From a virus, in the IMG/VR virus record IMGVR_UViG_3300033402_000018: a stretch of 55,764 nt of DNA; one strand, given 5' to 3'. This document shows positions 585 to 36,311 of the stretch, one piece after another; the stretch's first letter is position 1, and each line of letters opens with the position of its first letter. Made by a program: the position numbers and the translations under genes. The notes under the pieces were generated by a model. That model saw only the letters and a list, made by a program, of their open reading frames with translations. It was not told the DNA's origin and did not search any database.

Positions 585-856
585 TGAGAAAGTTTTTCAA
601 GAAAAAGAAATACTCGTGGGAAGGCGTTAAGCACGCGATCCCGATTGACCAAGACATCTGGGATCACACCCAGCAATACGTCAAGGATCAGATCGCGATC
701 ATGAAACGCCACGGTTCGGAGCCTGACCCGCCGCTGACTGAGGCGCAGTTCCAAGACCTCGTGTATGTGACGGCACGGTATCCGCAGCAAGTGAGAAATC
801 TTCGAAAGAAGTACGAGGCACCAGAAGATGCGACTTTGCGGGCCAACGCAGTATAA
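584..856 (+). CDS. hypothetical protein
   Basis: In-frame ATG (MRKFFKKKKYSW...) overlapping stop of upstream gene; long upstream part of ORF 398..856 overlaps the better ORF 255..584 and is trimmed. Confidence 0.4.
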   Translation: MRKFFKKKKYSWEGVKHAIPIDQDIWDHTQQYVKDQIAIMKRHGSEPDPPLTEAQFQDLVYVTARYPQQVRNLRKKYEAPEDATLRANAV

Positions 857-1457
857 CCGATTGCTTTCAGCGATCAAGTATTACGAGCAGTGCGGTTTCA
901 AATACATTGATGTGCCATGGACTGTCAGTGAAGAAGCCATGAACATTACGCGTCCGGCGTGGGCTGGTACGAATACGCTTATCTACACCGCTGGCGGCAA
1001 GCAGCATTGCCCCGTTGCTTCAGCCGAGCAATCATTTCTTCAAATGCAGTTGGACGCGCTTGATGGAAGTCTTGACAACCGAATTTCTGGCAGCTTTTGC
1101 ACACTAACACCATGCTTTCGCAATGAGCCTGTCATTGACGATCTTCACCAGCCGTATTTCATGAAGGTGGAGCTTATCAGTTGGGATAAGACAACCCGCG
1201 AAGACATGGACAAAATGATCGCTGGGGCGCGGTTATTTTTCGAAGAGCATCTTTGGATTGATTGTGTCTACAATACGGAGCCTGATCCTATCGGTGTTGT
1301 TGCCTATGATTTGGTGACCACGCACACAGGGATCGAGCTAGGGAGCTATGGCATTCGTGAGCATCCGAGAGTCGGACGCTGGGTTTACGGCACCGGATTA
1401 GCCGAACCGCGTTTTAGTCTCGCGCTTGAAAAAGAGCCGCAAAGTGAGACGGTATAA
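828..1457 (+). CDS. seryl-tRNA synthetase-like class II aminoacyl-tRNA synthetase catalytic core (minimal, no tRNA-binding arm)
   Basis: Motif-1-like GFKYIDVPWTV; motif-2-like CFRNEPVIDDLHQPYFMKVEL (compare SerRS CFRSE...HQFDKVE); motif-3-like YGTGLAEPRFSLALE (compare SerRS GSGLAVGRTLVAILE). Only 209 aa. Confidence 0.55.
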   Translation: MRLCGPTQYNRLLSAIKYYEQCGFKYIDVPWTVSEEAMNITRPAWAGTNTLIYTAGGKQHCPVASAEQSFLQMQLDALDGSLDNRISGSFCTLTPCFRNEPVIDDLHQPYFMKVELISWDKTTREDMDKMIAGARLFFEEHLWIDCVYNTEPDPIGVVAYDLVTTHTGIELGSYGIREHPRVGRWVYGTGLAEPRFSLALEKEPQSETV

Positions 1458-1479: not shown

Positions 1480-2190
1480 ATGGCTTGGTTTGACCAAATC
1501 TCGATGTCGCAAATTAGCCACAGACTGTTTGTCAGTGGTTACGCTCCTGCCGCTGAGTTGGCAAAGGAAAATCCTCATAAAATCACTGCCGTTCTCTGTG
1601 TCCATCAAGTCATGGACTACGACCAGAACCCCAACATCATCTACATGCACGTGCCATTTGACGACGGATCACCCATCCCGCCGCGTCAGTTTGTAAAGTG
1701 CCTTGGTTGGTTGAAGTTCATGTGGGAGAACGGGCACACAATTCTTGTCCATTGCGCCGCTGGCATCTCGCGATCAGTCACGATCATGGCGTCGTTCATG
1801 CACTACGAAGGCATTTGCGATTTTGAAACAGCACTTGACCGAATCCGCATGGCCCGTCCGGTCGCATCTCCTGCCGCAGCCGTATCGAACTCCGCAAAGC
1901 AGATGCTTGGCGTATATCCTTACGATGGCTCAATGGTGCCGGAGCATGAACGCACCATGCACGAACTTATCGAACGCGTGCAGAATCAACGCGCCGCACA
2001 TGCGCACCCGGATGAGAACTGCCCGATGCGCCAGTTTTTACTAGGCGATCAAGAAGACAACAGACCGCGCTACGAAATCCCATGCACCTGCGAGAAGCTG
2101 CTGAATCCAATAGAGTACGCGCAGCAGAAAGAAAAAAATATCATCGTTGTTGCTGATCCCGGCATCATACTAACAGATGACGAGGGGTGA
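1480..2190 (+). CDS. dual-specificity protein phosphatase
   Basis: Active-site HCAAGISRS (CX5R P-loop) preceded by a D-containing loop; 236 aa. Confidence 0.8.
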   Translation: MAWFDQISMSQISHRLFVSGYAPAAELAKENPHKITAVLCVHQVMDYDQNPNIIYMHVPFDDGSPIPPRQFVKCLGWLKFMWENGHTILVHCAAGISRSVTIMASFMHYEGICDFETALDRIRMARPVASPAAAVSNSAKQMLGVYPYDGSMVPEHERTMHELIERVQNQRAAHAHPDENCPMRQFLLGDQEDNRPRYEIPCTCEKLLNPIEYAQQKEKNIIVVADPGIILTDDEG

Positions 2191-2819
2191 GTATGGAGCG
2201 GGTCTTAAACGATGCCTTGGAGCTTGAAGGGATTGCCCAAGGGCACCAAGACGACATCCGTGCCTACCTCAAAATCCTGCGCAACCGGGATCAGTCAACC
2301 TACGAGCATTCCATTCGAGTAGGGATACTCGCCAGTAAGATTGCCATCTATGCCGCCAAGCCGGGGGTTAGCGCACGCATGATGCTGTGGGCTGGCTTCC
2401 TGCATGACATCGGCAAGGTGCTGGTGCCGCCCGGAGTTCTTACTAAGAAATCTCACTTTACCGCTGACGATTACGCCGCGATGGAGCCGCACGTCAAGTA
2501 CGGCTGGGACATGCTCACCGAAGTTCACGATTACACCGCACACATCCTCGTCCGGCATCACCAGTATGGCTCCAAGCCCTACCCTAAAGAACTGCCAGCG
2601 CTGCCGGAGCACCTACAGGCTCGCGCTGAAGTGGTGGACAATGCCGCACGCCTATTGGCGCTCGCGGACTACTACGATGCTCTCATGCACCGGAACAACG
2701 ACAAAAACGGTGCGAAGCCGCTATCCGGCAAAGAGAAGCGGGAAATCTACATGCGGGACAACGCCGATCAGAAAGACCTGATCGAGCTTCTTGAGTCCGT
2801 GGGTGTGCTAAAATTCTAG
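2187..2819 (+). CDS. HD-domain phosphohydrolase (HD-GYP-like)
   Basis: H...HD metal-binding motif (HSIRV...FLHDIGK) and downstream HHQYGSKPYP resembling the HHExxDGxGYP region; ATGA overlap with upstream gene. Confidence 0.65.
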   Translation: MSMERVLNDALELEGIAQGHQDDIRAYLKILRNRDQSTYEHSIRVGILASKIAIYAAKPGVSARMMLWAGFLHDIGKVLVPPGVLTKKSHFTADDYAAMEPHVKYGWDMLTEVHDYTAHILVRHHQYGSKPYPKELPALPEHLQARAEVVDNAARLLALADYYDALMHRNNDKNGAKPLSGKEKREIYMRDNADQKDLIELLESVGVLKF

Positions 2820-2826
2820 TAGACTC

Positions 2827-3384
2827 ATGAAAATCAAAGACTTAAAGCTACACGCTTTCTGGAAACGGTTTTTCCGCCGCCTTAGTAGGGGATTGGGCGT
2901 GCCGAAGAAGATTGCAGCGACAGAGGTAAAAGCACCGGGAAAATACGAAGCTGGTAAGCGGTACACCATCTTTCTCGCCGGAGCCATCGACCAAGGTAAA
3001 GCGGTGGACTGGCAGCAGAAAGTCGCCCGCGCTCTGGACGAACTGGACATTCTGATCCTGAATCCGCGCAGAGAGAATTGGGACCCAAGCTGGGATCAAT
3101 CCGCAGACAATCCTGAATTCAGGCAGCAGGTAAATTGGGAACTTGACGCACAGGCGGCCGCTGATATGGTGATTTTCGTGTTCACCAAGGACAGCAAGGC
3201 ACCGATCACGTTCTTGGAATTCGGTCTGTTCGCCCCAACCAAAGACGCCGTGGTCTGCGCTGAAGAAGGCTTCTACCGCAAGGGAAATCTTGACATCGTA
3301 GCTGAGCGCTACCACATTCCAATGTATGACAATTTGGATGAGATGATCGGTGACTTGAAGACGGTGCTTGGGGAGAAAGCATGA
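2827..3384 (+). CDS. nucleoside 2-deoxyribosyltransferase-like protein
   Basis: N-terminal YTIFLAGAIDQG Rossmann-like motif typical of the NDT/RCL family; 185 aa. Confidence 0.45.
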   Translation: MKIKDLKLHAFWKRFFRRLSRGLGVPKKIAATEVKAPGKYEAGKRYTIFLAGAIDQGKAVDWQQKVARALDELDILILNPRRENWDPSWDQSADNPEFRQQVNWELDAQAAADMVIFVFTKDSKAPITFLEFGLFAPTKDAVVCAEEGFYRKGNLDIVAERYHIPMYDNLDEMIGDLKTVLGEKA

Positions 3385-3716
3385 GCCAGACAGTTTACGT
3401 GCTAACGACCTTGATGGGGGAAAACCCGAAGCTGCCGAAAGAGTGGCGTCCTGTTGGCGTGGTAACAAGCCTCGACATCGCTGAGCAATGGGTCGCGCAC
3501 GGCGGGAACAACGATTGGATTCCGTTTGAGATTGACGATACCAGTTTGACCGGATTAAGCGACAACCCTTCAGTGTTTAAGCCCGCGCCGCCTACGCCGA
3601 ACGAAGAGAAGCTGGAAAAGGCCAACCAGCAATTGCAAGGCGTGATTCAGACGCTTCAGAAGCGACTCGAAAAGAAAAAGCCAAAGGCTTCCCTTTTGAA
3701 CAAGAAACGGAGATAA
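3381..3716 (+). CDS. hypothetical protein
   Basis: ORF of 111 aa with ATGA overlap; basic C-terminus. Confidence 0.4.
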   Translation: MSQTVYVLTTLMGENPKLPKEWRPVGVVTSLDIAEQWVAHGGNNDWIPFEIDDTSLTGLSDNPSVFKPAPPTPNEEKLEKANQQLQGVIQTLQKRLEKKKPKASLLNKKRR

Positions 3717-3722
3717 TAGGGT

Positions 3723-4046
3723 ATGGTCACATTGACACCCGGAGCGGTAAAGAAAGTCAAGGAAATCATGGAGCAGCAAGACCCGAAGCCAGCCGCACTG
3801 CGTCTTGGCGTTATTGGCGGCGGATGCTCCGGCTTTCAGTATTCTATGCAGTTCGAGAATGAGAAGGGCATGATGGACAAGTCCTTCGAGTTCGACGGTC
3901 TTACGTTGATCGTTGACGCTACATCGTACATGTATCTCGACGGCTGCGAAGTTGATTACCTTGAGACGCTCGAAGCCAGCGGCTTCAAGTTCAACAACCC
4001 GAACGTGAAAAGCACCTGTGGGTGCGGTCAGAGCTTCAACGCATGA
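3723..4046 (+). CDS. iscA: A-type Fe-S cluster carrier protein (IscA/ErpA/HesB family)
   Basis: 107 aa with conserved C at GGGCSGF and C-terminal CGCGQSF motif (three-Cys signature of IscA/ErpA). Confidence 0.85.
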   Translation: MVTLTPGAVKKVKEIMEQQDPKPAALRLGVIGGGCSGFQYSMQFENEKGMMDKSFEFDGLTLIVDATSYMYLDGCEVDYLETLEASGFKFNNPNVKSTCGCGQSFNA

Positions 4047-4219
4047 GCGAAGAGAATTTTGATTTCGCATTGGACTCATGGACTATCACGCCTGAAGAAG
4101 GCGAAAGAATTGCCCGTGATTTGCAACGACAGTATATCGAAGATCACATTAGGCAGTTCGGGGGCGTCACCCTGCTTTGCCTGCGGCCCAAGAAAGATGA
4201 AACCAATGATGGATTGTAA
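4043..4219 (+). CDS. small acidic hypothetical protein
   Basis: ATG overlapping the iscA stop (ATGA); 58 aa. Confidence 0.3.
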   Translation: MSEENFDFALDSWTITPEEGERIARDLQRQYIEDHIRQFGGVTLLCLRPKKDETNDGL

Positions 4220-4552
4220 ACCCAAGCCGAAGAGAGACGGTGGTAAGTCGGAACCGTCTTCGCGGCACGTTCCGCGACGATCCACCGAACTACGACAAGC
4301 CGATCTATGACCGTGATGGTAACCAGATCGGTGTGATTTATGATGCGCCTCCCGCGCCGGGGCCGAGCGGATTATCATGATTTGTTGCTCAATTTGTAAA
4401 GAAATGGTCGTATCTAGTGTTGAAGACCTCCGTTTGAGCGAAACGTTGGTCAGGATACAAGACCACTACAAGACGCATTCTTGGCTGCGACGTAAGCTTC
4501 ACAGGCTACAAACGTTGCCAGCGACATTGCGGCTGAAGAGATTTCAAAAAAC

Positions 4553-4969
4553 ATGTACTCTGAAAAAGTAATCGACCACTACAACAACCCGCGTAATGTT
4601 GGCTCGCTGGACAAAGCATCGCCAGACGTGGGGACAGGTCTGGTTGGTGCGCCGGAGTGCGGCGACGTAATGAAGCTTCAGATCAAGGTGGAAAACAATG
4701 TCATTGTTGACGCTAAGTTCAAAACTTTTGGCTGCGGCAGTGCTATTGCTTCTAGCTCGCTCGCGACTGAATGGGTTAAAGGCAAGACAACTGATGAAGC
4801 CCTCGCCATTAAAAACACCGAGATCGTCAAAGAACTCGCCCTCCCACCTGTAAAGATTCACTGTTCAGTGCTCGCCGAAGACGCGATTCGCGCCGCGATT
4901 GCTGACTGGAAAAAGAAGCAAGATGCCGAAAAAGCCAAAGAAGAAAAAGCCCATCACGAAGCGCGATAA
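4553..4969 (+). CDS. iscU: Fe-S cluster assembly scaffold protein IscU/NifU-like
   Basis: MYSEKVIDHYNNPRNVGSL, GAPECGDVMKL, FKTFGCGSAIASSS, LPPVKIHCSVLAEDAI: three conserved Cys plus LPPVK motif. Confidence 0.9.
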   Translation: MYSEKVIDHYNNPRNVGSLDKASPDVGTGLVGAPECGDVMKLQIKVENNVIVDAKFKTFGCGSAIASSSLATEWVKGKTTDEALAIKNTEIVKELALPPVKIHCSVLAEDAIRAAIADWKKKQDAEKAKEEKAHHEAR

Positions 4970-5116
4970 CTTCGACCGCAACTACATGCGCCACATTGTG
5001 GAAGAAGAGGAAGAAACGCTGTTCAAACTTCTGCAAGAAGACAAGCCCACCAAATCCTAATTTCTCCAGTATTAAAGCCTTTAGTAGGCGGTATTCCGCC
5101 TTCGAAAGGAACGACT

Positions 5117-5503
5117 ATGTACAAAAGACCCGAAAGAAAGCATAAACCGAACACAGAAAAGTGCCCGTTCTGCGACAAAGATTTCAAACCAATTGATCCG
5201 TGGCGCGAATCACAATGCGTGCTCAACAAGCCGCTCTGGATGGTGATCCCACCCGGCGGCGTCCATCTCGAATGCCCGGTTCACCCCGAGGGACATCATG
5301 TCTTCGGCAGCCCGGTCATCTACATGGATTCTCCTATCCGTGTTCGTGAGAACAACTTACCTGACCCGTTAAACGCGCCGTGGTGCGAGTACGACCGCAC
5401 GAAGTATTCAGGCGGCTGCACCTACGATCACGATTCCAGCAAGGATTTGACGTTCGATTCCACCAAACCCTTCGGAACCACGACAGGCTCGAATTGGCGG
5501 TAA
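5117..5503 (+). CDS. hypothetical protein
   Basis: 128 aa ORF, Cys/His-containing N-terminus (CPFCDK). Confidence 0.4.
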   Translation: MYKRPERKHKPNTEKCPFCDKDFKPIDPWRESQCVLNKPLWMVIPPGGVHLECPVHPEGHHVFGSPVIYMDSPIRVRENNLPDPLNAPWCEYDRTKYSGGCTYDHDSSKDLTFDSTKPFGTTTGSNWR

Positions 5504-5524
5504 TCTAGGAAAATTTGGTATTAG

Positions 5525-6106
5525 GTGGGCATGAGTCAATATGATCGTGTCTACCTAGACCAATGCTACGCACTCGCCAAGAACAGCACATGTGTGAAGG
5601 CCAAAGTTGGCGCTCAAGTGCGCGGACCCTACGGCGACATGTCTGACCACCTGCTAGGTCAAGGTTTTAACCAATCCCCCAATCCTGAGTTTGCTGACTG
5701 CGGCAAGCTGTGCGCCGGGGGCATCCGCTGCGGCATTAAGTCCGGTACTCGCGCTGAACTCTGTTACGCCGTCCACGCGGAGCAATACGCACTACTTCAG
5801 GCCGGATCGCTCGCGAAAGGGGCCACGATCTATGTCGCTTCCTACGATGACAAAGGCGAGAAACGCCTGAAGAACGCTGAACTCCCGCTGGGGCACCCGA
5901 TGCACGGTTTCTACTGTTCGGTGTGTGCTAGGCTCATCTGGGCTGCGGGAATCGCACGTGTAGTGACGGACGGTGTAAAGGGCCCGGTTGTTCTCAGCCT
6001 GAATGACATCTGGAAGACCTCTTACGGCGTGGCGGACAGTATTGACAAGAAGTACAAATCCTGCGGTTGCGAAGTAGGCAATTGCATCTGTGATATTGAG
6101 ACCTAA
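5525..6106 (+). CDS. cytidine/deoxycytidylate deaminase-fold zinc-binding protein
   Basis: CYAVHAEQYALLQAG (H-A-E zinc/catalytic motif) and downstream YCSVCARLI (PCxxC motif). Confidence 0.55.
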   Translation: MGMSQYDRVYLDQCYALAKNSTCVKAKVGAQVRGPYGDMSDHLLGQGFNQSPNPEFADCGKLCAGGIRCGIKSGTRAELCYAVHAEQYALLQAGSLAKGATIYVASYDDKGEKRLKNAELPLGHPMHGFYCSVCARLIWAAGIARVVTDGVKGPVVLSLNDIWKTSYGVADSIDKKYKSCGCEVGNCICDIET

Positions 6107-6639
6107 TGTCAAACCTCGCTGAACTCAAAGACCTGCCCAAAGAGCGGAAGAAGTATGTCGTTGGCTTCTTGATTGATCCCACGTTGTCTAAGGTGGTGCT
6201 CGTGCGTAAGAACCGACCTGACTATCAACGCGGTCTGCTCAACGGCGTGGGCGGGAAAGTCGGAGACACGATCCTAGACGAAACCACGGAAGAGGCGATG
6301 GCCCGTGAGTTCCAAGAAGAGACGGGTGGGGTTGATCTCAACTGGCGGCGGTTCTTGCACATGATGACACCCCGGTCAGACCTGACATTTTTCTACGCCA
6401 TCGGCAATGTTCACTGTGTCCGAACACAGACCGACGAAGAAGTAGCGGTGTATGACATTTCCGATGTGATGGATCGCTGCGATACGATGCCCAATGTTCG
6501 CTGGTGCATTCAGATGGCACGCTCTATTGAGTTCGGTGAGCACGCGGATTACTTTGAAGTGGCTGAGATTTTGGAGACAGACTTACCAGCGAATTTTCAT
6601 TTCATCCCGGATGCAGCGCTTGAAAAAGAAGACCTATGA
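6106..6639 (+). CDS. NUDIX hydrolase
   Basis: Nudix box GGKVGDTILDETTEEAMAREFQEETG (GX5EX7REUXEEXGU). Confidence 0.8.
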   Translation: MSNLAELKDLPKERKKYVVGFLIDPTLSKVVLVRKNRPDYQRGLLNGVGGKVGDTILDETTEEAMAREFQEETGGVDLNWRRFLHMMTPRSDLTFFYAIGNVHCVRTQTDEEVAVYDISDVMDRCDTMPNVRWCIQMARSIEFGEHADYFEVAEILETDLPANFHFIPDAALEKEDL

Positions 6640-7574
6640 ACATTGAATCGAAACTGATACTTGCCAGCAAGAGCGAAGCAACAGGCATCACCCTTTACAC
6701 GTTTGTGCTCACGTACCCACGTGTCATCCTAGCTGAAGTAAACACGCATCGAATGCTCAGCCGCAACACCGCGTCATCTCGCGCTATTCCAGCCAAGAAA
6801 CAGCGGGAACGCGTGCTTACTGATCCGTTCGTGCCTGTCACAATTGGGGCGAATCAGAAAGGGATGCAGGCTGGTGAAGAGCTTGACGGCTGGCGTCGGT
6901 TTGTTGCGATCAACACGTGGAAACTTGCACGCTACCCAATGGTAGCGGCGTCGTGGGTACTCGACAAGGTTGGTGCGCACAAGCAAGTTGTGAACCGCAT
7001 TGTGGAGCCGTGGACGTTCACGCAGCAAGTTGTGACTTGCACCGACCTGAAGAATGTCTTCAAACTGCGCAACCACAAAGATGCAGAGCCACACTTTCAA
7101 ATCATCGCGAAACAGATGCAGATGCAAGCAGAGTGGGCCGAGAAATGGTTTAACACCCTTTCGTGGAACTCGGAGAACGCGCTTGACCGTAGATTAGAAA
7201 TCAACAACCAACTTGGTGTTGGTACTCTTCAGGTGCTAAAGCCGGGGGAGTGGCACATGCCGTTTGTTGATGAGAAGGACATCACAGACACAATCCTGAA
7301 CTCCATGCTGCATGACAGCACTGACGAATCCCTGAAGAAAATCAGCACAGCACGCTGCGCACGTGTCAGCTACTTTCTACCGGAGAGCGGCAAAAGGTCT
7401 GACCCTAAGCGTGACGTAGAGCTTTGCAATAAACTGTCCGGCTCCGGTCATTGGAGTCCGTTCGAGCACGTAGCCACGCCGACAAAAGAAGCGGATTACA
7501 TTGGCAATTTTAAGGGCTGGAAGCAGTATCGTAAAGAGTATCCGCAAGAGTCTGGAGGGGACCGTGGGAATTGA
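6636..7574 (+). CDS. thyX: flavin-dependent thymidylate synthase ThyX-like
   Basis: HRMLSRNTASSRA matches the ThyX RHRxxSxxxxSxR signature; size 312 aa. Confidence 0.6.
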   Translation: MNIESKLILASKSEATGITLYTFVLTYPRVILAEVNTHRMLSRNTASSRAIPAKKQRERVLTDPFVPVTIGANQKGMQAGEELDGWRRFVAINTWKLARYPMVAASWVLDKVGAHKQVVNRIVEPWTFTQQVVTCTDLKNVFKLRNHKDAEPHFQIIAKQMQMQAEWAEKWFNTLSWNSENALDRRLEINNQLGVGTLQVLKPGEWHMPFVDEKDITDTILNSMLHDSTDESLKKISTARCARVSYFLPESGKRSDPKRDVELCNKLSGSGHWSPFEHVATPTKEADYIGNFKGWKQYRKEYPQESGGDRGN

Positions 7575-7608
7575 AGGCTGGGGCAGATCATTTGGGGCGA
7601 TTCAAGCG

Positions 7609-8094
7609 ATGGAGAAACGCCTTGCGAAGCAGCGCGAGTGGGACATCTACTACCTGAACATGGCCCGTTACGTCTCCACGAAGTCGAAGGACCCAAGCAC
7701 GCAAACCGGAGCGTGCATCGTGCGCCCGGACAACTCTTTGTGTTCCATTGGCTTCAACGGCTTCCCCAAAGGCATGAATGACGCCCCGGAGCTTTACGCC
7801 AACCGTGATGTAAAGTATTCTCGCACAGTGCATTGCGAAGTCAATGCCGAAATCTTCACCAGAGAAGACCTGAAGGGGTTTACGCTTTACACGTGGCCTT
7901 TCTCATCTTGCGACCGTTGCGCGGTGACGATGATTCAGGCGGGAATTGCACGTTTTGTGTTTCCAACCATGCCGCCAGAGAAGGCGTCCCGTTGGGCTGA
8001 AAACATGGCGATAGCGCAAGGCTACATGCGGGAAGCTGGGCGGGAAGTGGTTGAGATACCGTATGAACAGATTCCCAAGGTTGTGCTAGAATAA
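7609..8094 (+). CDS. dCMP deaminase (ComEB-like)
   Basis: HCEVNAE and SCDRCAVTMIQAGI motifs (HAE / PCxxC); start placed at first ATG after upstream stop (alternative GTG ~7563). Confidence 0.7.
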   Translation: MEKRLAKQREWDIYYLNMARYVSTKSKDPSTQTGACIVRPDNSLCSIGFNGFPKGMNDAPELYANRDVKYSRTVHCEVNAEIFTREDLKGFTLYTWPFSSCDRCAVTMIQAGIARFVFPTMPPEKASRWAENMAIAQGYMREAGREVVEIPYEQIPKVVLE

Positions 8095-10130: not shown

Positions 10131-10515
10131 ATGAACGCTAACGAATACCAGACGCTCGCTGAAGTTACCGAGAGCAAAGATTTTGAAGCAATCGGTAAAC
10201 GCATGTCAACCATCCGTAGCATCCGTCTTCTCCACGCGACAACTTGGCATTTCCAGCGAATGCGGTGAAGTCGCTGACGCACTCAAGAAGCATATCTTCT
10301 ACGGCAAGGAACTGGACGTAGTAAACGTTGCCGAAGAGATCGGCGATATTTGCTGGTATCTGGCGCTCGCTTGCAATGAGCTTGGTATGGCATTCGAGCA
10401 GGACATCTTGGAAGTCAACATCGCCAAGCTGAAGGCCCGTTACGGGGACAAGTTCTCCGAGCACGCGGCCATGCACCGTGACCTCAACAAGGAACGTGCT
10501 ATACTCGAAGGATGA
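10131..10515 (+). pseudogene. mazG: MazG-like nucleoside triphosphate pyrophosphohydrolase interrupted by an apparent +1 frameshift (~10240-10250)
   Basis: Frame 0 encodes MNANEYQTLAEV...IRLLHA (then stop); frame +1 continues LGISSECGEVADALKK...EEIGDICWYLALA...KLKARYGDKF. Fused, this reproduces the MazG RLLHAALGLAGEAGE / EELGDLLW motifs. AAGGA RBS before 10131. Confidence 0.6.
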
Positions 10516-12351: not shown

Positions 12352-13185
12352 ATGGCGAACAAACCCAGAACCGACTCGCTGGGTGACAGAATGAAGCGCT
12401 ACGAAGCAACCACGCGCTTCCTGTTGCCGCGCCGCACTTACACAATTCTTCGCGTTGATGGTCGTGCGTTCCACACGTGGACTCGCGGGCTTGACCGTCC
12501 CTATGACCGCAACTTCATGGCGTGCATGAACGAAGCCGCGCTCGAACTTTGCCAGCAGATCGCGGGAGCGCAGTTCGCTTACGTGCAGTCCGACGAAATC
12601 AGCCTGTTGGCTGTGGACTTCCTTGACATCAAAACCGAGCCGTGGTTTGAAGGCGGCGTGCAGAAATGGGCCAGCGTCGGCGCATCCATCGCAACGATGG
12701 CGTTCAACAATTGCTTGCTTCGGCTGAAGGGGGCAAACCTCGACGAGTCTGAGCTTAAGATCACCAAGAAGCTCCCGAACGCCACGTTCGACGCCCGCGT
12801 GTTCACCATCCCAGACTTGGTGGAAGTGGAAAATTATTTCGTGTGGCGGCAGCAGGATGCGGAACGCAACTCCGTCACAATGCTGGCGCAGAGCTACGCT
12901 TCCCACAAGCAACTCATGGGGAAAAATCGCGCCGCGCAGCATGAGATCATCCACAAAGCCGGGGACAATTGGGCGAAGCATCCTGTGCGTTTCAAGCATG
13001 GCGCTGTGATCCGCCGTGCCGCTGAAAACGAAGTCTGGACGGAAGTCGGCACCCATCATTTCAACTGGGTTGTGGACGAAGACACCCCAGCCTTCACCAA
13101 AGACCGCGCTTACATCCGTGGTCTGGTTCCTGTTGTTTGGGACAACGACCTTCTGGTCAGAAAGGCGGCAGCGAATGGAGAATAG
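12352..13185 (+). CDS. tRNA(His) guanylyltransferase Thg1-like protein (TLP)
   Basis: DRMKRYE, TILRVDGRAFHTWTRGL, FAYVQSDEISLL match the conserved Thg1 N-terminal palm-domain motifs. Confidence 0.7.
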   Translation: MANKPRTDSLGDRMKRYEATTRFLLPRRTYTILRVDGRAFHTWTRGLDRPYDRNFMACMNEAALELCQQIAGAQFAYVQSDEISLLAVDFLDIKTEPWFEGGVQKWASVGASIATMAFNNCLLRLKGANLDESELKITKKLPNATFDARVFTIPDLVEVENYFVWRQQDAERNSVTMLAQSYASHKQLMGKNRAAQHEIIHKAGDNWAKHPVRFKHGAVIRRAAENEVWTEVGTHHFNWVVDEDTPAFTKDRAYIRGLVPVVWDNDLLVRKAAANGE

Positions 13186-15830: not shown

Positions 15831-16373
15831 ATGGCGCAGGACGTTAATTTCAAGAAAACCGCAGCAACAGAGACGCAGTACAACACAGGCGCACAGCGGG
15901 ACAATCGAGTAGGTAAAGGGGCGTTTCACTGGATGCCGTGGGACGCCCTGTTTTGTGTCTCCCGCATCTATGAGCTTGGCAACAAAGGCCGGAGCAAAAC
16001 CGGAGACGGCAACGACCGTAATTGGGAAAACGGGATGCCGCTCATTGACCTGTTGCAGAGCGCGATCAATCACATCTCAGCCCACATCTCAGGCGACCGC
16101 AGCGAGCCGCACATCTCACAGGCAATCTGGAACCTATTGAACTACCTTCAGACTTCGATCTGGGTTATCCTAGGGTTCCGCCCCAAGGAACTCAACAAGC
16201 TGCCAGACCATCGCCATGCTTGGAAGCCGGGGGATGAGCCGCCATGCCCGTTGTCACCACAAGAGATTGAGTGGTTACAGTTCAAGGGTGTGATCCCAAA
16301 AGAGCCAGAGTTGCATGATTGCGGGCCTGAACCAGCCGTTCTTAAGGTGGTATTGCCCGGATCGGAACGCTGA
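15831..16373 (+). CDS. hypothetical protein
   Basis: 180 aa ORF. Confidence 0.5.
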   Translation: MAQDVNFKKTAATETQYNTGAQRDNRVGKGAFHWMPWDALFCVSRIYELGNKGRSKTGDGNDRNWENGMPLIDLLQSAINHISAHISGDRSEPHISQAIWNLLNYLQTSIWVILGFRPKELNKLPDHRHAWKPGDEPPCPLSPQEIEWLQFKGVIPKEPELHDCGPEPAVLKVVLPGSER

Positions 16374-19168: not shown

Positions 19169-19798
19169 ATGACATTACTCGAACGAGCAATTGAGATCGC
19201 CGTCCACGCCCATGCTGGGCAGATGGACGAAGACGGCTTGCCGCACATCATCCACAGCCTTGAAGTCATGTTCGCTGTGAAACGCCGATTCAGCGGTGAC
19301 CGTTGCCTCGCGCCGATCCTGAAGAAATACACCGAAGAAGAACTACTCATCGCCGCCGTCTTGCACGACACCGTGGAAGATTCCAAGGGTGCGATCACTC
19401 TGGACTACATCAAGTCCGTGTTCGGTGAGAACGTGGCTGAGATCGTAGACAGCGTGACGCGGCGCGGTTTAGGCGAAGGCGAGACGAAAGAGTTTTACCG
19501 GGACTTCATCTATCGCGCCAGACTCAACGAAGGCGGTGCGATCATCAAGCTGAGCGACCTTCACCACAACTTCGGACGCCTGAACAAAATCGCCGCCAGT
19601 AAGAAGAAGTGGCGCGAGAAACTGGAGTTCAAGTACGGAATATCCATCGGCGTCATCACCGACAACATCTCATGGGAGCAAGCATCTTGGAGTGTCCAAC
19701 ACGACGGCCCCCATGCTCACTATTACATTGCTGACCCTAACGGCAAGAAGATCGAAATCCCCGAAGAAGAATTCAATCAGATTTTTGCAAAAAAGTAA
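19169..19798 (+). CDS. (p)ppGpp hydrolase, SpoT/RelA-type HD domain (small alarmone hydrolase-like)
   Basis: AHAGQMDEDGLPHIIHSLEV and AAVLHDTVEDS match the RelA/SpoT hydrolase HD-domain motifs; 209 aa with no synthetase domain. Confidence 0.7.
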   Translation: MTLLERAIEIAVHAHAGQMDEDGLPHIIHSLEVMFAVKRRFSGDRCLAPILKKYTEEELLIAAVLHDTVEDSKGAITLDYIKSVFGENVAEIVDSVTRRGLGEGETKEFYRDFIYRARLNEGGAIIKLSDLHHNFGRLNKIAASKKKWREKLEFKYGISIGVITDNISWEQASWSVQHDGPHAHYYIADPNGKKIEIPEEEFNQIFAKK

Positions 19799-31597: not shown

Positions 31598-32497
31598 ATG
31601 CTGGATTGGGGAGACATTCTAATGGCGGCACTTTATCCATACACCTACGGGCCTACGCTTCTTAAAATCGACAACGTTTGCCTATCGGCGTCGTCTGACG
31701 GTCTGCGGTTGCTCGAACACGAAGAACCGGGGAGCCGCCCCATTCTGAAGAACGTGAGCGCCGAAATCAAGAAGATCGACCGTGTTGGATACGTTAACGG
31801 TCAGATCGTAGGATTCATCGGCCCGTCTGGTATCGGCAAAACACAGCTTTTCCGCATCATTGCCGGACTCAACAAGCCAACATCAGGTTCCGTCACGATC
31901 AATGGCGGCAAAGTGGTGCAGGCAGGTGAAGTAGGCGTCGTGGCGCAGAATTACCCGCTCTTTGCGCATCGCACGGTCATGAGTAACCTCATGCTCGCCG
32001 CCAAACAGAAAGAGAAAGACCCCAAAGTAGCGCATGACAAAATCATGACGTTCTTGAACGAATTCAAGCTGGCGGACAAGGCCCCATTGTATCCGGCGCA
32101 GTTATCAGGTGGGCAGAAGCAGCGCATCGCCATCATTCAGCAAATCCTGTGCTCAGAGCATTTCCTGCTCATGGATGAGCCTTTCTCCGGCTTGGACATC
32201 ATCGTAGAAGGCAAATGCACTGAGTTGATCTTGAAGGTTGCCAACATGGACGGCTTGAACACCGTGATCGTAGTCACGCATGACATTTCAGCCGCCGCAG
32301 CCATCGCCGATCACATCTGGGCATTGGGGCGTGAGCATGATGCTGAAGGCAACCCGCTCCCCGGCGCGAGTATTGTGAAGACCTACGACCTGATAAACGA
32401 AGGTCTGTGCTGGACACAGTTGGGTGAACACGCGATGGTTCAACCAAACATGGTTGAGTTCATCCGCCAAGTCAAGGAAGATTTCTACAAGTTCTAA
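31598..32497 (+). CDS. ABC transporter ATP-binding protein
   Basis: Walker A GPSGIGKT, signature LSGGQKQRIAI, Walker B LLMDEPFSGLD, H-loop VTHD. Confidence 0.8.
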   Translation: MLDWGDILMAALYPYTYGPTLLKIDNVCLSASSDGLRLLEHEEPGSRPILKNVSAEIKKIDRVGYVNGQIVGFIGPSGIGKTQLFRIIAGLNKPTSGSVTINGGKVVQAGEVGVVAQNYPLFAHRTVMSNLMLAAKQKEKDPKVAHDKIMTFLNEFKLADKAPLYPAQLSGGQKQRIAIIQQILCSEHFLLMDEPFSGLDIIVEGKCTELILKVANMDGLNTVIVVTHDISAAAAIADHIWALGREHDAEGNPLPGASIVKTYDLINEGLCWTQLGEHAMVQPNMVEFIRQVKEDFYKF

Positions 32498-32741: not shown

Positions 32742-32891
32742 ACCATGCTGGATCGCGCCTTAGACTGGACGGGGGATCACCCGGTGATAACCGTGGTGAT
32801 CTGCCTTCTCCTGTTGACAGGCGGGTGCGGTATTAGCATTCATGTCGGCATCCTTTCGTCTCAGACGAAGTTGATGCCCTATTGAGGAACT

Positions 32892-33152
32892 ATGGCATAC
32901 GTCATTGCAGAGCCGTGTATCGGCGTCAAAGACACAGCATGTGTCGATGCGTGTCCAGTGGATTGCATTCACCCCAAAAAAGGCACACCTGAGTTCGAGA
33001 AAGAGCCGCAGCTTTACATTGATCCCGTAGAGTGCATCGACTGCGGCGCTTGCGTCCCGGTTTGCCCAACGGCCGCAATTTTCCCGGTGGACGATTTGCC
33101 CGAACAGTGGAAGAAATTCACCGAGATCAACGCCAAGTATTTTGGAAGGTAA
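32892..33152 (+). CDS. 2x[4Fe-4S] ferredoxin
   Basis: CIGVKDTACVDACP and CIDCGACVPVCP cluster motifs; 86 aa. Confidence 0.8.
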   Translation: MAYVIAEPCIGVKDTACVDACPVDCIHPKKGTPEFEKEPQLYIDPVECIDCGACVPVCPTAAIFPVDDLPEQWKKFTEINAKYFGR

Positions 33153-35638: not shown

Positions 35639-35728
35639 GGTGAGTTGGGAGAGTGGTTGATTCCGCTGGTTTGCTAAACCAGAGCACCCGAAAGGGTGCC
35701 ACAGGTTCGAATCCTGTACTCACCGCCA
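35639..35728 (+). tRNA. tRNA-Ser (anticodon GCU)
   Basis: Manual fold: acceptor GGTGAGT/ACTCACC, 3-bp D stem, anticodon stem CTGGT/ACCAG with loop TTGCTAA, long variable hairpin, T arm ACAGG-TTCGAAT-CCTGT, discriminator G, encoded CCA. Confidence 0.75.
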
Positions 35729-35729
35729 T

Positions 35730-35815
35730 GGTAGGTTTGGGCATTGGAAGGCCCACCTGTCTCGAAAACAGGCGACCGAAAGGTCGTAGGAGTTCGACTC
35801 TCCTACCTACCGCCA
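35730..35815 (+). tRNA. tRNA-Ser (anticodon CGA)
   Basis: Acceptor GGTAGGT/ACCTACC, anticodon stem CCTGT/ACAGG with loop CTCGAAA, long variable arm, T arm GGAGTTCGACTCTCC, G discriminator, CCA. Confidence 0.7.
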
Positions 35816-36032
35816 AATTTTAAGCTGGGCGGTGTATGGCACGGATACTTCTCGAAAAAGTAAAAACCCGTGACCGCGATGTTCCCCGGCAAAGTGTAAG
35901 TTCGCAGCGGTGTTGGATACAGTTACTTCGGTTGACTCTCTCAGGGAAACCTGAATGAGGAATAGACTTGGTTCGATCCCAAGCGACCAGCCGTAAGGCT
36001 GGTGTCAACTGTACCGTTTGTTCCCTGCGATT

Positions 36033-36122
36033 GGTGAGTTGGGGGAGTGGTTTAACCCACTTCGTTGGAAGCGAAGCGCACCCGAAAGGGTGCCGTGAGT
36101 TCGAATCTCACACTCACCGCCA
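36033..36122 (+). tRNA. tRNA-Ser (anticodon GGA)
   Basis: Acceptor GGTGAGT/ACTCACC, anticodon stem CTTCG/CGAAG with loop TTGGAAG, long variable hairpin CGCACCCGAAAGGGTGC, T arm GTGAG-TTCGAAT-CTCAC, G discriminator, CCA. Confidence 0.75.
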
Positions 36123-36127
36123 AGTTT

Positions 36128-36213
36128 GGAGAGGTCGGCATTGGCACGCCAAGCGGTCTTGAAAACCGTGATACCGCAAGGTATTGGGAGTTCGATTCTC
36201 CCCTTCTCCGCCA
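36128..36213 (+). tRNA. tRNA-Ser (anticodon UGA)
   Basis: Acceptor GGAGAGG/CTTCTCC (one G-U), anticodon stem GCGGT/ACCGT with loop CTTGAAA, long variable hairpin GATACCGCAAGGTAT, T arm GGGAG-TTCGATT-CTCCC, G discriminator, CCA. Confidence 0.7.
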
Positions 36214-36233
36214 AATTTGCGGCTGTTAAATTT

Positions 36234-36311
36234 GCGGTTGTGGCGAAATAGGCAGAGCGGGGGCCTTAAAAGCCCTGTCATTTGCGGGTTCGAGTCCCGC
36301 CAACCGCACCA
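36234..36311 (+). tRNA. tRNA, anticodon UAA (Leu-type anticodon) with atypical short variable region
   Basis: Acceptor GCGGTTG/CAACCGC, anticodon stem GGGGC/GCCCT with loop CTTAAAA, T arm GCGGG-TTCGAGT-CCCGC, A discriminator, CCA; D stem weak and variable region 7 nt, not type II. Confidence 0.45.

Follow-up and report, generated by a model that had tools for sequence, protein, structure and literature searches.

Within a viral sequence of 55,764 nucleotides (IMG/VR record IMGVR_UViG_3300033402_000018; the whole stretch is called the window below), we analysed a block of plus-strand genes at positions 1480-8094. The block encodes, in order, a dual-specificity phosphatase (DUSP), an HD-GYP-like phosphohydrolase, a PF15891 protein resembling nucleoside 2-deoxyribosyltransferase (NDT), a zinc deaminase (Deam1), a NUDIX hydrolase, a flavin-dependent thymidylate synthase (ThyX) and a second deaminase (Deam2), with the iron-sulphur (Fe-S) genes iscA and iscU and open reading frames (ORFs) of no assigned family between them. 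We consider it probable, with moderate confidence, that the core of this block (5531-8094), together with a MazG-like gene about 2 kb downstream, forms a module for converting deoxycytidine to deoxythymidine nucleotides and for nucleotide house-cleaning, feeding canonical dTTP and standing next to signalling-type hydrolases, in a phage whose DNA is itself canonical. A phage of about 450 kb would thus secure its thymidine supply through a compact deaminase-NUDIX-ThyX-deaminase array, one that is kept even when the thymidylate synthase is swapped for another type.

Conservation and coupling of the gene block

The window is a fragment of a huge phage, since searches with ThyX and Deam1 led to relatives in IMG/VR and in metagenomes, on contigs that measure 170, 449, 456, 463 and 894 kb and of which several are from soil. 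Complete related genomes include IMGVR_UViG_3300033405_000001 (463 kb) and 3300032770_000001 (456 kb). All sizeable ORFs in the first 12 kb lie on the plus strand, and the block is a segment of a long co-directional array of auxiliary genes kept in a group of related, very large phages from soil or sediment (contigs of ~450-465 kb). A megablast search of 1480-8094 against GenBank phages gave no match, and a sensitive blastn search of the same region against the same phages gave only short patches in iscU and a deaminase gene. The longest relative (L061; jgi:3300035696 Ga0374055_0000025; 894,233 bp) is about twice the length of the related contigs of ~447-463 kb; it could be a two-copy concatemer instead of a genome of record size.

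All seven domain assignments in the block scored above the Pfam gathering thresholds (Table 1), and the catalytic motifs were legible. Profile searches therefore bear out the initial annotation, made by reading the letters, of seven nucleotide-type domains within 6.6 kb, with the NDT-like, DUSP and HD-GYP-like genes upstream and two deaminases flanking NUDIX and ThyX; it had left iscA, iscU and several unknown ORFs within the block unmentioned.

Gene order was strongly conserved. The series HisRS-like (histidyl-tRNA synthetase), DUSP, HD, NDT-like, unknown, IscA, IscU, Cys-rich ORF, (Deam1), NUDIX, ThyX, Deam2, ..., (MazG), ..., Thg1, where brackets mark genes not always present, recurred in at least eight independent contigs (L001, L011-L014, L061/62, L064-L066) at 35-90% protein identity; because the same order is found in so many, the clustering is not due to chance. 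A Deam2-type deaminase followed ThyX in all relatives checked (L001, L011, L012, L013, L061, L064-L066), NUDIX adjoined ThyX in L001, L012, L013, L061, L064 and L066, and the complete set of Deam1, NUDIX, ThyX, Deam2 and MazG occurred in L001, L061, L064, L065 and L066. Start and stop codons overlap by one base between Deam1 and NUDIX (TAATG) and by four between NUDIX and ThyX (ATGA); from its layout, Deam1-NUDIX-ThyX-Deam2 reads as a translationally coupled array.

From gene identities, folds, synteny, coupling, the displacement of ThyX and the purging of palindromes (both described below), we infer substrates and a direction of flux as follows. Deam2 would deaminate dCMP to dUMP, and ThyX would methylate dUMP to dTMP. 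NUDIX would release monophosphates from (d)CTP or dUTP, and Deam1 would offer a second entry to dUMP, possibly at the triphosphate level or free of allosteric control. MazG and NUDIX would also act as house-cleaning pyrophosphatases.

Gene content varied among the relatives. Deam1 was confined to a sub-clade (the window, L001, L002, L061/62 and L064-66) and absent from L011-L013; NUDIX was missing only in L011, and HD and NDT-like genes were absent in L013. This variation, together with the Fe-S genes and at least seven unknown ORFs interspersed in the block, would suit a mosaic island of unrelated auxiliary genes that travel together by descent and form no functional unit. A scan of the window for promoters and terminators, which yielded no signal above shuffled controls that would delimit operons, also agrees with such an island. 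However, the start/stop overlaps across Deam1-NUDIX-ThyX and the invariant pairing of ThyX with Deam2, even where the type of ThyX is replaced, argue for a working unit, and the pairing of a dCMP deaminase with a thymidylate synthase is well established from cd and td of phage T4. We regard a mere mosaic as quite unlikely.

Two further arrangements were seen in individual relatives. L066 (1114-7624) has three deaminase genes, one of the Deam1 type and two after ThyX, along with endonuclease VII and a dUTPase in the array. In L013 (5872-8400 and 12486-13535) the block is interrupted by genes for two DNA methyltransferases, one of the N6/N4 and one of the C5 cytosine type, and for a TnpB of the IS200/605 type; these calls were made by eye from motifs (DPPY, GGTPCQSFS), with no profile search.

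Two deaminase lineages and a rearranged ThyX

Deam2 matched phrog_174 (E 1.1e-38) and, among solved structures, human DCTD (2w4l, E 1.2e-18), 7fh4 (E 3.6e-15) and the dCMP deaminases of T4 (1vq2, E 8e-7) and Streptococcus mutans (2hvv, E 5e-6). Counted from the ATG at 7609, its zinc motifs lie at residue 75 (HCE) and at residues 100-104 (SCDRC); relative to the usual H-A-E and PCxxC they show conservative changes of A to C and P to S. By these matches Deam2 is an ordinary dCMP-deaminase homologue, with the activity predicted.

Deam1 is more divergent. It matched phrog_174 at E 1.4e-15 and carries the motifs HAE (residue 82) and CSVC (residue 129); HAE and CxxC are invariant in its family, which also has an insertion of ~17 residues ahead of a proline-less FYCSxC motif (YCSVC in Deam1 itself) and a segment, GxGxN...DC..LCAGGIR..KSGT..ELC, partly common to ComEB-like proteins. 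In Foldseek, an AlphaFold2 model (pLDDT 82.7) came closest to RibD and to dCMP deaminases (T4, human and S. mutans) at E 4e-6 to 2e-4, with TM-scores of only 0.46-0.50. A profile of Deam1 run against 1.84 billion representative proteins found 535 at E<=1e-10, of which just five reached E<=1e-30. The curated families nearest to the outgroup of Deam1 were ComEB (E 1e-31) and, at E 1e-24, the deaminase domain of the anti-phage dCTP deaminase. With so few close matches and this outgroup, Deam1 is a narrow offshoot of the dCMP/dCTP-deaminase lineage restricted to huge phages. A TadA-like tRNA deaminase, which nearby tRNA-related genes had brought to mind, was rejected as the leading idea: the fold and profile neighbours of Deam1 are dCMP deaminase, ComEB and RibD, and the gene is coupled to NUDIX and ThyX.

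The two deaminases share just 22% identity (E 0.057), so that they are, by this comparison, not duplicates of each other. Of the possibility, raised in the initial annotation, that both would prove to be ordinary dCMP deaminase duplicates, only the placement of Deam2 held; Deam1 belongs to a separate lineage. Its clade is now delimited as small, uncharacterised and directly assayable.

The NUDIX protein between Deam1 and ThyX has an intact Nudix box, GDTILDETTEEAMAREFQEETG, at residue 53 (pattern GX5EX7REUXEEXGU); a single-sequence search of the PDB found no solved relative of it. Deam1 and NUDIX together might constitute an undescribed two-enzyme route of this clade of huge soil phages, either from dCTP through dUTP to dUMP, or for deaminating and sanitising a cytosine nucleotide of non-standard kind, for instance 5-methyl-dCMP on a direct salvage path to dTMP or a CTP analogue made by the host as an antiviral. 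We think such a route unlikely; if true, it would mean that the several deaminases differ in substrate and are not redundant.

In the window, a single surplus G interrupts the reading frame of the MazG-like gene. The initial annotation had taken the frameshifted gene as fitting a nucleotide-remodelling theme. The frameshift is indeed there, but it has no part in that theme: L058 and L060, both further assemblies of this phage and identical except for the extra G, encode an intact protein of 127 amino acids, and the frameshift is therefore an assembly error or a rare variant. MazG is also intact in L013 and L064.

ThyX in the window proved unusual in its architecture. The family profile matched ThyX of Thermotoga maritima out of order, its C-terminal part aligning to residues 31-88 and its middle to residues 158-213; the domain order is not colinear. 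The ThyX fold was confirmed. The family does not vary at the residues that align with the ThyX motif of T. maritima and with the LR..H and PFEH segments. Where the classical motif is RHRxxSxxxxSxR, the window protein reads THRMLSRNTASSR from residue 37, with Thr in place of the first Arg; the remaining H, R, S, S and R are kept and are family-invariant. Compared with every solved ThyX structure, the phrog_85 type appears to be circularly permuted, the classical N-terminal ~56 residues being placed at the C-terminus. A full-text literature search for a permuted ThyX found no paper describing one. The type is very common, with more than 7500 clusters and 1034 records from cultured phages, mostly annotated as thymidylate synthase; among cultured phages it is the usual ThyX in N4-like and rV5-like phages, ICP1 and others. 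Set beside classical ThyX (T. maritima TM0449, Mycobacterium tuberculosis, PBCV-1) and the PolB UMP/dUMP methylase, the window protein differs in the order of its segments, in the Thr at the first RHR position, in scoring below the TIGR02170 cut-off and in lacking a PDB match when searched as a single sequence. If the permutation is confirmed and has not already been described, it would matter for structure-based annotation and for work on ThyX inhibitors.

The best available evidence for the function of the permuted protein is its displacement in place. L061 and L062 have a classical, colinear ThyX (L061:10940-11758; E 7e-57 to T. maritima ThyX) exactly where the permuted one would stand, with NUDIX on one side and Deam2 on the other, and for this reason the permuted ThyX probably does the classical enzyme's job of converting dUMP to dTMP. 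The deaminase downstream of the classical ThyX in these two contigs is 312-380 amino acids long and hence has an N-terminal extension.

Restriction-site avoidance and the state of the phage DNA

The initial annotation had proposed that the block makes non-canonical DNA bases or rebalances deoxynucleoside triphosphate (dNTP) pools. The second half is supported by the Deam2 homologue of dCMP deaminase beside ThyX in all relatives and by the coupled Deam1 and NUDIX genes upstream. The first half is not supported, and the genome itself provided an independent check on it.

Six-base palindromes were severely depleted in the window. Of the 64 possible, 34 were absent, including CGATCG, TGATCA, TCCGGA, GCCGGC, CCCGGG, CTCGAG, CTGCAG, GGATCC and GTCGAC, and base composition predicted ~490 sites for the absent ones. 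In 100 dinucleotide shuffles a mean of 0.7 palindromes were absent (maximum 3), and the total number of palindromic hexamers, 295, compared with 892 +/- 30 in the shuffles. Among hexamers for which the Markov model predicted 5 or more occurrences, 23 of 46 palindromes were at zero, against 9 of 3394 non-palindromes. Depletion was selective: GAATTC (EcoRI, 14 sites), TCATGA (BspHI, 28 sites) and TGCGCA (30 sites) occurred at expected frequencies, AGCGCT is present at 21 sites, and the four-base palindromes GGCC and GTAC had observed/expected ratios of 0.45 and 0.65. The relatives L001, L011, L012, L038 and L061 likewise purge palindromes (observed/expected 0.38-0.52). In L013 the avoidance is weaker, at 0.67. 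Selection against certain restriction sites is the likely source of this pattern.

In coliphages, site avoidance was reported for 55.8% of sites without cytosine hydroxymethylation and for 2.4% with it (PMC6286503). Because palindromes are purged here as in coliphages lacking that modification, the phage DNA is most likely cleavable by restriction enzymes, from which canonical bases follow by inference, and the phage would evade restriction by purging sites.

This bears directly on the reading in which the block produces hypermodified or substituted pyrimidines, with the deaminases, NUDIX and MazG clearing canonical dNTPs and ThyX or the NDT-like protein making or installing the modified base. 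Several nucleotide-acting enzymes within 6.6 kb, the two or even three deaminases kept in relatives, a divergent and permuted ThyX with an altered RHR motif, a PF15891 protein that lacks an assigned function, and a PF18909 domain protein faintly reminiscent of a modification enzyme could all be read in its favour. However, genes for a ThyA-family (PF00303) hydroxymethylase or methylase, PurZ, DUF550 (MazZ), DpdA/Que, a kinase, or a glycosyl or amino-acyl transferase were not found among the window ORFs scanned. The permuted ThyX is of a type common in cultured phages and is replaced by a classical one in the same slot; palindrome purging is extreme, and phages with hydroxymethylcytosine show almost none; and the C5 and N6/N4 DNA methyltransferases in the block of L013 imply ordinary C and A as substrates.

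Uracil-containing DNA of the PBS1 type goes with a lack of thymidylate synthase and Thy1, and the presence of Thy1 counts against it (PMC7824862); ThyX is present in the window. Diaminopurine DNA goes with PurZ, MazZ and DatZ together, of which the window offers just a protein with the N-terminal domain of PF18909, its HD protein being of the HD-GYP type. DatZ- and MazZ-like roles for the HD and MazG genes were rejected on that account and because PurZ was missing from the ORFs scanned. We judge it very improbable that the block makes non-canonical bases. A dense cluster of nucleotide enzymes is not by itself a sign of modified DNA, and restriction-site statistics are a cheap, independent check when genomes are scanned for such clusters.

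Several points weigh against a canonical dTTP-feeding module. Just 56 kb of a genome of probably 450 kb is visible, and modification genes could sit elsewhere. Site avoidance is an indirect measure, compatible with modifications that leave restriction sites cleavable. ThyX lacks the first Arg of its RHR motif and falls below the TIGR02170 equivalog (41 bits against a cut-off of 87.9). Deam1 is far below the ComEB equivalog TIGR02571 (18.4 bits against 219), and a sequence search of the PDB with it gave nothing at E<0.1. Deam1, NUDIX and the PF15891 protein have no known enzyme activity, and the retention of two or three deaminases from separate lineages is not accounted for by a simple supply model.

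Upstream hydrolases, neighbouring genes and known systems

DUSP has the P-loop HCAAGISRS at residue 91 (HCX5R(S/T)), a general-acid Asp in PFDD at residue 59, and a C-terminal extension of ~90 residues with no function assigned. Its closest solved relatives are DUSP15 and DUSP22 (E 5.6e-12), and it resembles atypical DUSPs and archaeal protein tyrosine phosphatases; it is kept in L001, L011, L012, L013 and L061. The start of the HD gene overlaps the DUSP stop (GTGA). Closest to the HD protein among solved structures are the HD-GYP phosphodiesterases of c-di-GMP and cGAMP (PmGH 4mcw, E 3.7e-10; PA4781 4r8z; V-cGAP3 5z7c), which it resembles over the HD core and its H...HD...H...HH...D ligands (H41, HD73-74, HH124-125 and D161 are present). 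It differs from them in standing alone, without a receiver domain, and in having KPYP in place of GYP: the degenerate motif is HHQYGSKPYP as compared to HHExxDGxGYP, with the Glu, the Asp and both Gly not kept. By these likenesses it probably breaks down cyclic di- or oligonucleotide signals. The NDT-like protein matched phrog_30579, of unknown function (E 2.7e-43), and a sole solved relative, the uncharacterised 4mcj (E 1.3e-26). A literature search on PF15891 or 4mcj gave nothing relevant and no characterised member; a scan of bacterial genomes found no close relative, and matches in a viral scan were confined to the same phage clade.

By homology, then, DUSP, the HD-GYP-like protein and the NDT-like protein would be signalling or phosphoester hydrolases and not enzymes of nucleotide pools, none being assignable to dNTP metabolism on present evidence. 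They probably serve roles other than dTMP supply, possibly counter-signalling.

That possibility can be extended to most of the block: the breakdown of cyclic-nucleotide or phospho signals would fall to HD-GYP and DUSP, NDT-like and NUDIX would destroy signalling or chain-terminating nucleotides, and Deam1, Deam2 and ThyX would offset host effectors that deplete dNTPs. The relatives of the HD protein fit such a role in counter-defence, as do a SpoT-like HD_4 protein elsewhere in the window and the resemblance of Deam1 and Deam2 to the deaminase domain found in the anti-phage dCTP deaminase. Jumbo-phage proteins of the HD-GYP, HD-alarmone and Nudix kinds have been predicted to counter nucleotide-based immunity (PMC7824862). 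Yet the basis is purely homology, and the HD protein has a degenerate GYP motif. For DUSP, NDT-like and NUDIX, PADLOC returned no informative match, and the literature search gave no anti-defence family for PF15891. NUDIX and Deam1, moreover, are physically coupled to ThyX and not to the HD-GYP gene. We consider counter-defence as the purpose of most of the block unlikely, and favour nucleotide conversion for its core.

IscA and IscU are Fe-S assembly genes without a demonstrated tie to the other genes. The ORF at 3381-3716 had no family match in profile searches. The Cys/His-rich ORF, kept in L001, L011, L012, L061 and L064-L066, had none in Pfam, PHROG or PADLOC.

Elsewhere, the window encodes an NAD-dependent ligase, an AAA ATPase, an ABC ATPase and a vault-like protein. 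The last is unusual in a phage and had no PHROG match. The HisRS-like protein (without a Pfam or PDB match), Thg1, a tRNA cluster and RlaP make up a set related to tRNA and RNA repair.

Table 1. Features of the window, in order of position (bp).
Feature	Position	Strand	Evidence and remarks
209-amino-acid protein, phrog_4806 ('histidyl tRNA synthetase')	828-1457		E 5e-40
DUSP (Cys-based dual-specificity phosphatase), 236 amino acids	1480-2190	+	PF00782 E 1.2e-14, 54.7 bits (cut-off 33.5)
HD-GYP-family phosphohydrolase, 210 amino acids	2187-2819	+	PF01966 E 7.8e-15; PF13487 (HD_5) E 7.6e-9
Nucleoside 2-deoxyribosyltransferase-like protein	2827-3384	+	PF15891 E 3.9e-34, 117.6 bits (cut-off 30)
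Conserved ORF	3381-3716	+	ATGA-coupled to NDT-like gene; kept in L001, L011, L012, L013
IscA/ErpA-type Fe-S carrier	3723-4046	+	TIGR00049 E 4.2e-37; 57-89% identity in relatives
IscU Fe-S scaffold	4553-4969	+	TIGR01999 E 9.4e-65, above cut-off; 88-90% identity in relatives
Cys/His-rich ORF, 128 amino acids (CPFC...C...H..CPVHP)	5117-5503	+	Directly upstream of Deam1-NUDIX-ThyX array
Deam1, divergent zinc deaminase of dCMP-deaminase/ComEB lineage, 191 amino acids	5531-6106	+	PF00383 28 bits (cut-off 25)
NUDIX hydrolase	6106-6639	+	PF00293 29.6 bits (cut-off 21.1); overlaps Deam1 and ThyX
Phage-type ThyX	6636-7574	+	PF02511 40.9 bits, E 2.5e-10; phrog_85 E 4.5e-55
Deam2, DCTD/T4-type dCMP deaminase homologue	7564-8094 (GTG 7564, public gene call) or from ATG 7609	+	PF00383 E 6e-13
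MazG-like NTP pyrophosphohydrolase	10131-10515	+	PF03819; frame broken by one extra G at 10238
Thg1 (tRNA-His guanylyltransferase)	12352-13185		
180-amino-acid protein, PF18909 (dATP/dGTP diphosphohydrolase) N-terminal domain only	15831-16373		E 6.6e-8; kept in relatives
SpoT-like HD_4 protein, possibly alarmone hydrolase	19169-19798		
ABC ATPase	31598-32497		
Small 4Fe-4S ferredoxin	~32890-33150		Coordinates by offset from L063
tRNA cluster, four tRNA-Ser and one tRNA-Leu	35639-36311		
Vault-like protein, 815 amino acids	50013-52460		PF11978 major-vault-protein shoulder E 3.3e-26; PF17795 vault repeat E 5.5e-11
RlaP nucleotidyltransferase	52726-53562		

Clusters known to make modified bases overlap in part with the window. 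Those of T4 (hydroxymethylcytosine), SPO1 (hydroxymethyluracil), M6, ViI and PhiW-14 (hypermodified thymidine), and S-2L and PhiVC8 (PurZ-MazZ-DatZ) share with it a dCMP deaminase, a MazG-like protein, HD-domain hydrolases and dNTP pyrophosphatases. They differ in having a ThyA-family hydroxymethylase, 5-HMUDK and transferases, or PurZ, none of which was among the ORFs scanned here; the HD protein of the window is not DatZ-like; and the window phage purges restriction sites.

Two further systems resemble the Deam1-NUDIX pair. In the bacterial Dcd-Dut route (dCTP to dUTP to dUMP), NUDIX could play the role of Dut; however, Dcd has a dUTPase fold and Deam1 is a zinc deaminase, the relative L066 has a separate dUTPase, and a triphosphate substrate for Deam1 is hypothetical. 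The anti-phage dCTP deaminase, whose deaminase domain resembles the outgroup of Deam1, has a kinase-like N-terminal domain that Deam1 lacks (191 residues against a model of 437 positions).

The closest parallels are cd and td of T4 and, in PBCV-1, the dCMP/dCTP deaminase with ThyX A674R. Like them, the window pairs a homologue of dCMP deaminase (Deam2) with a thymidylate synthase, and has house-cleaning pyrophosphatases nearby. Known from its genes alone, it departs from both in its permuted ThyX, in the extra deaminase of another lineage and in the NUDIX gene set between them.

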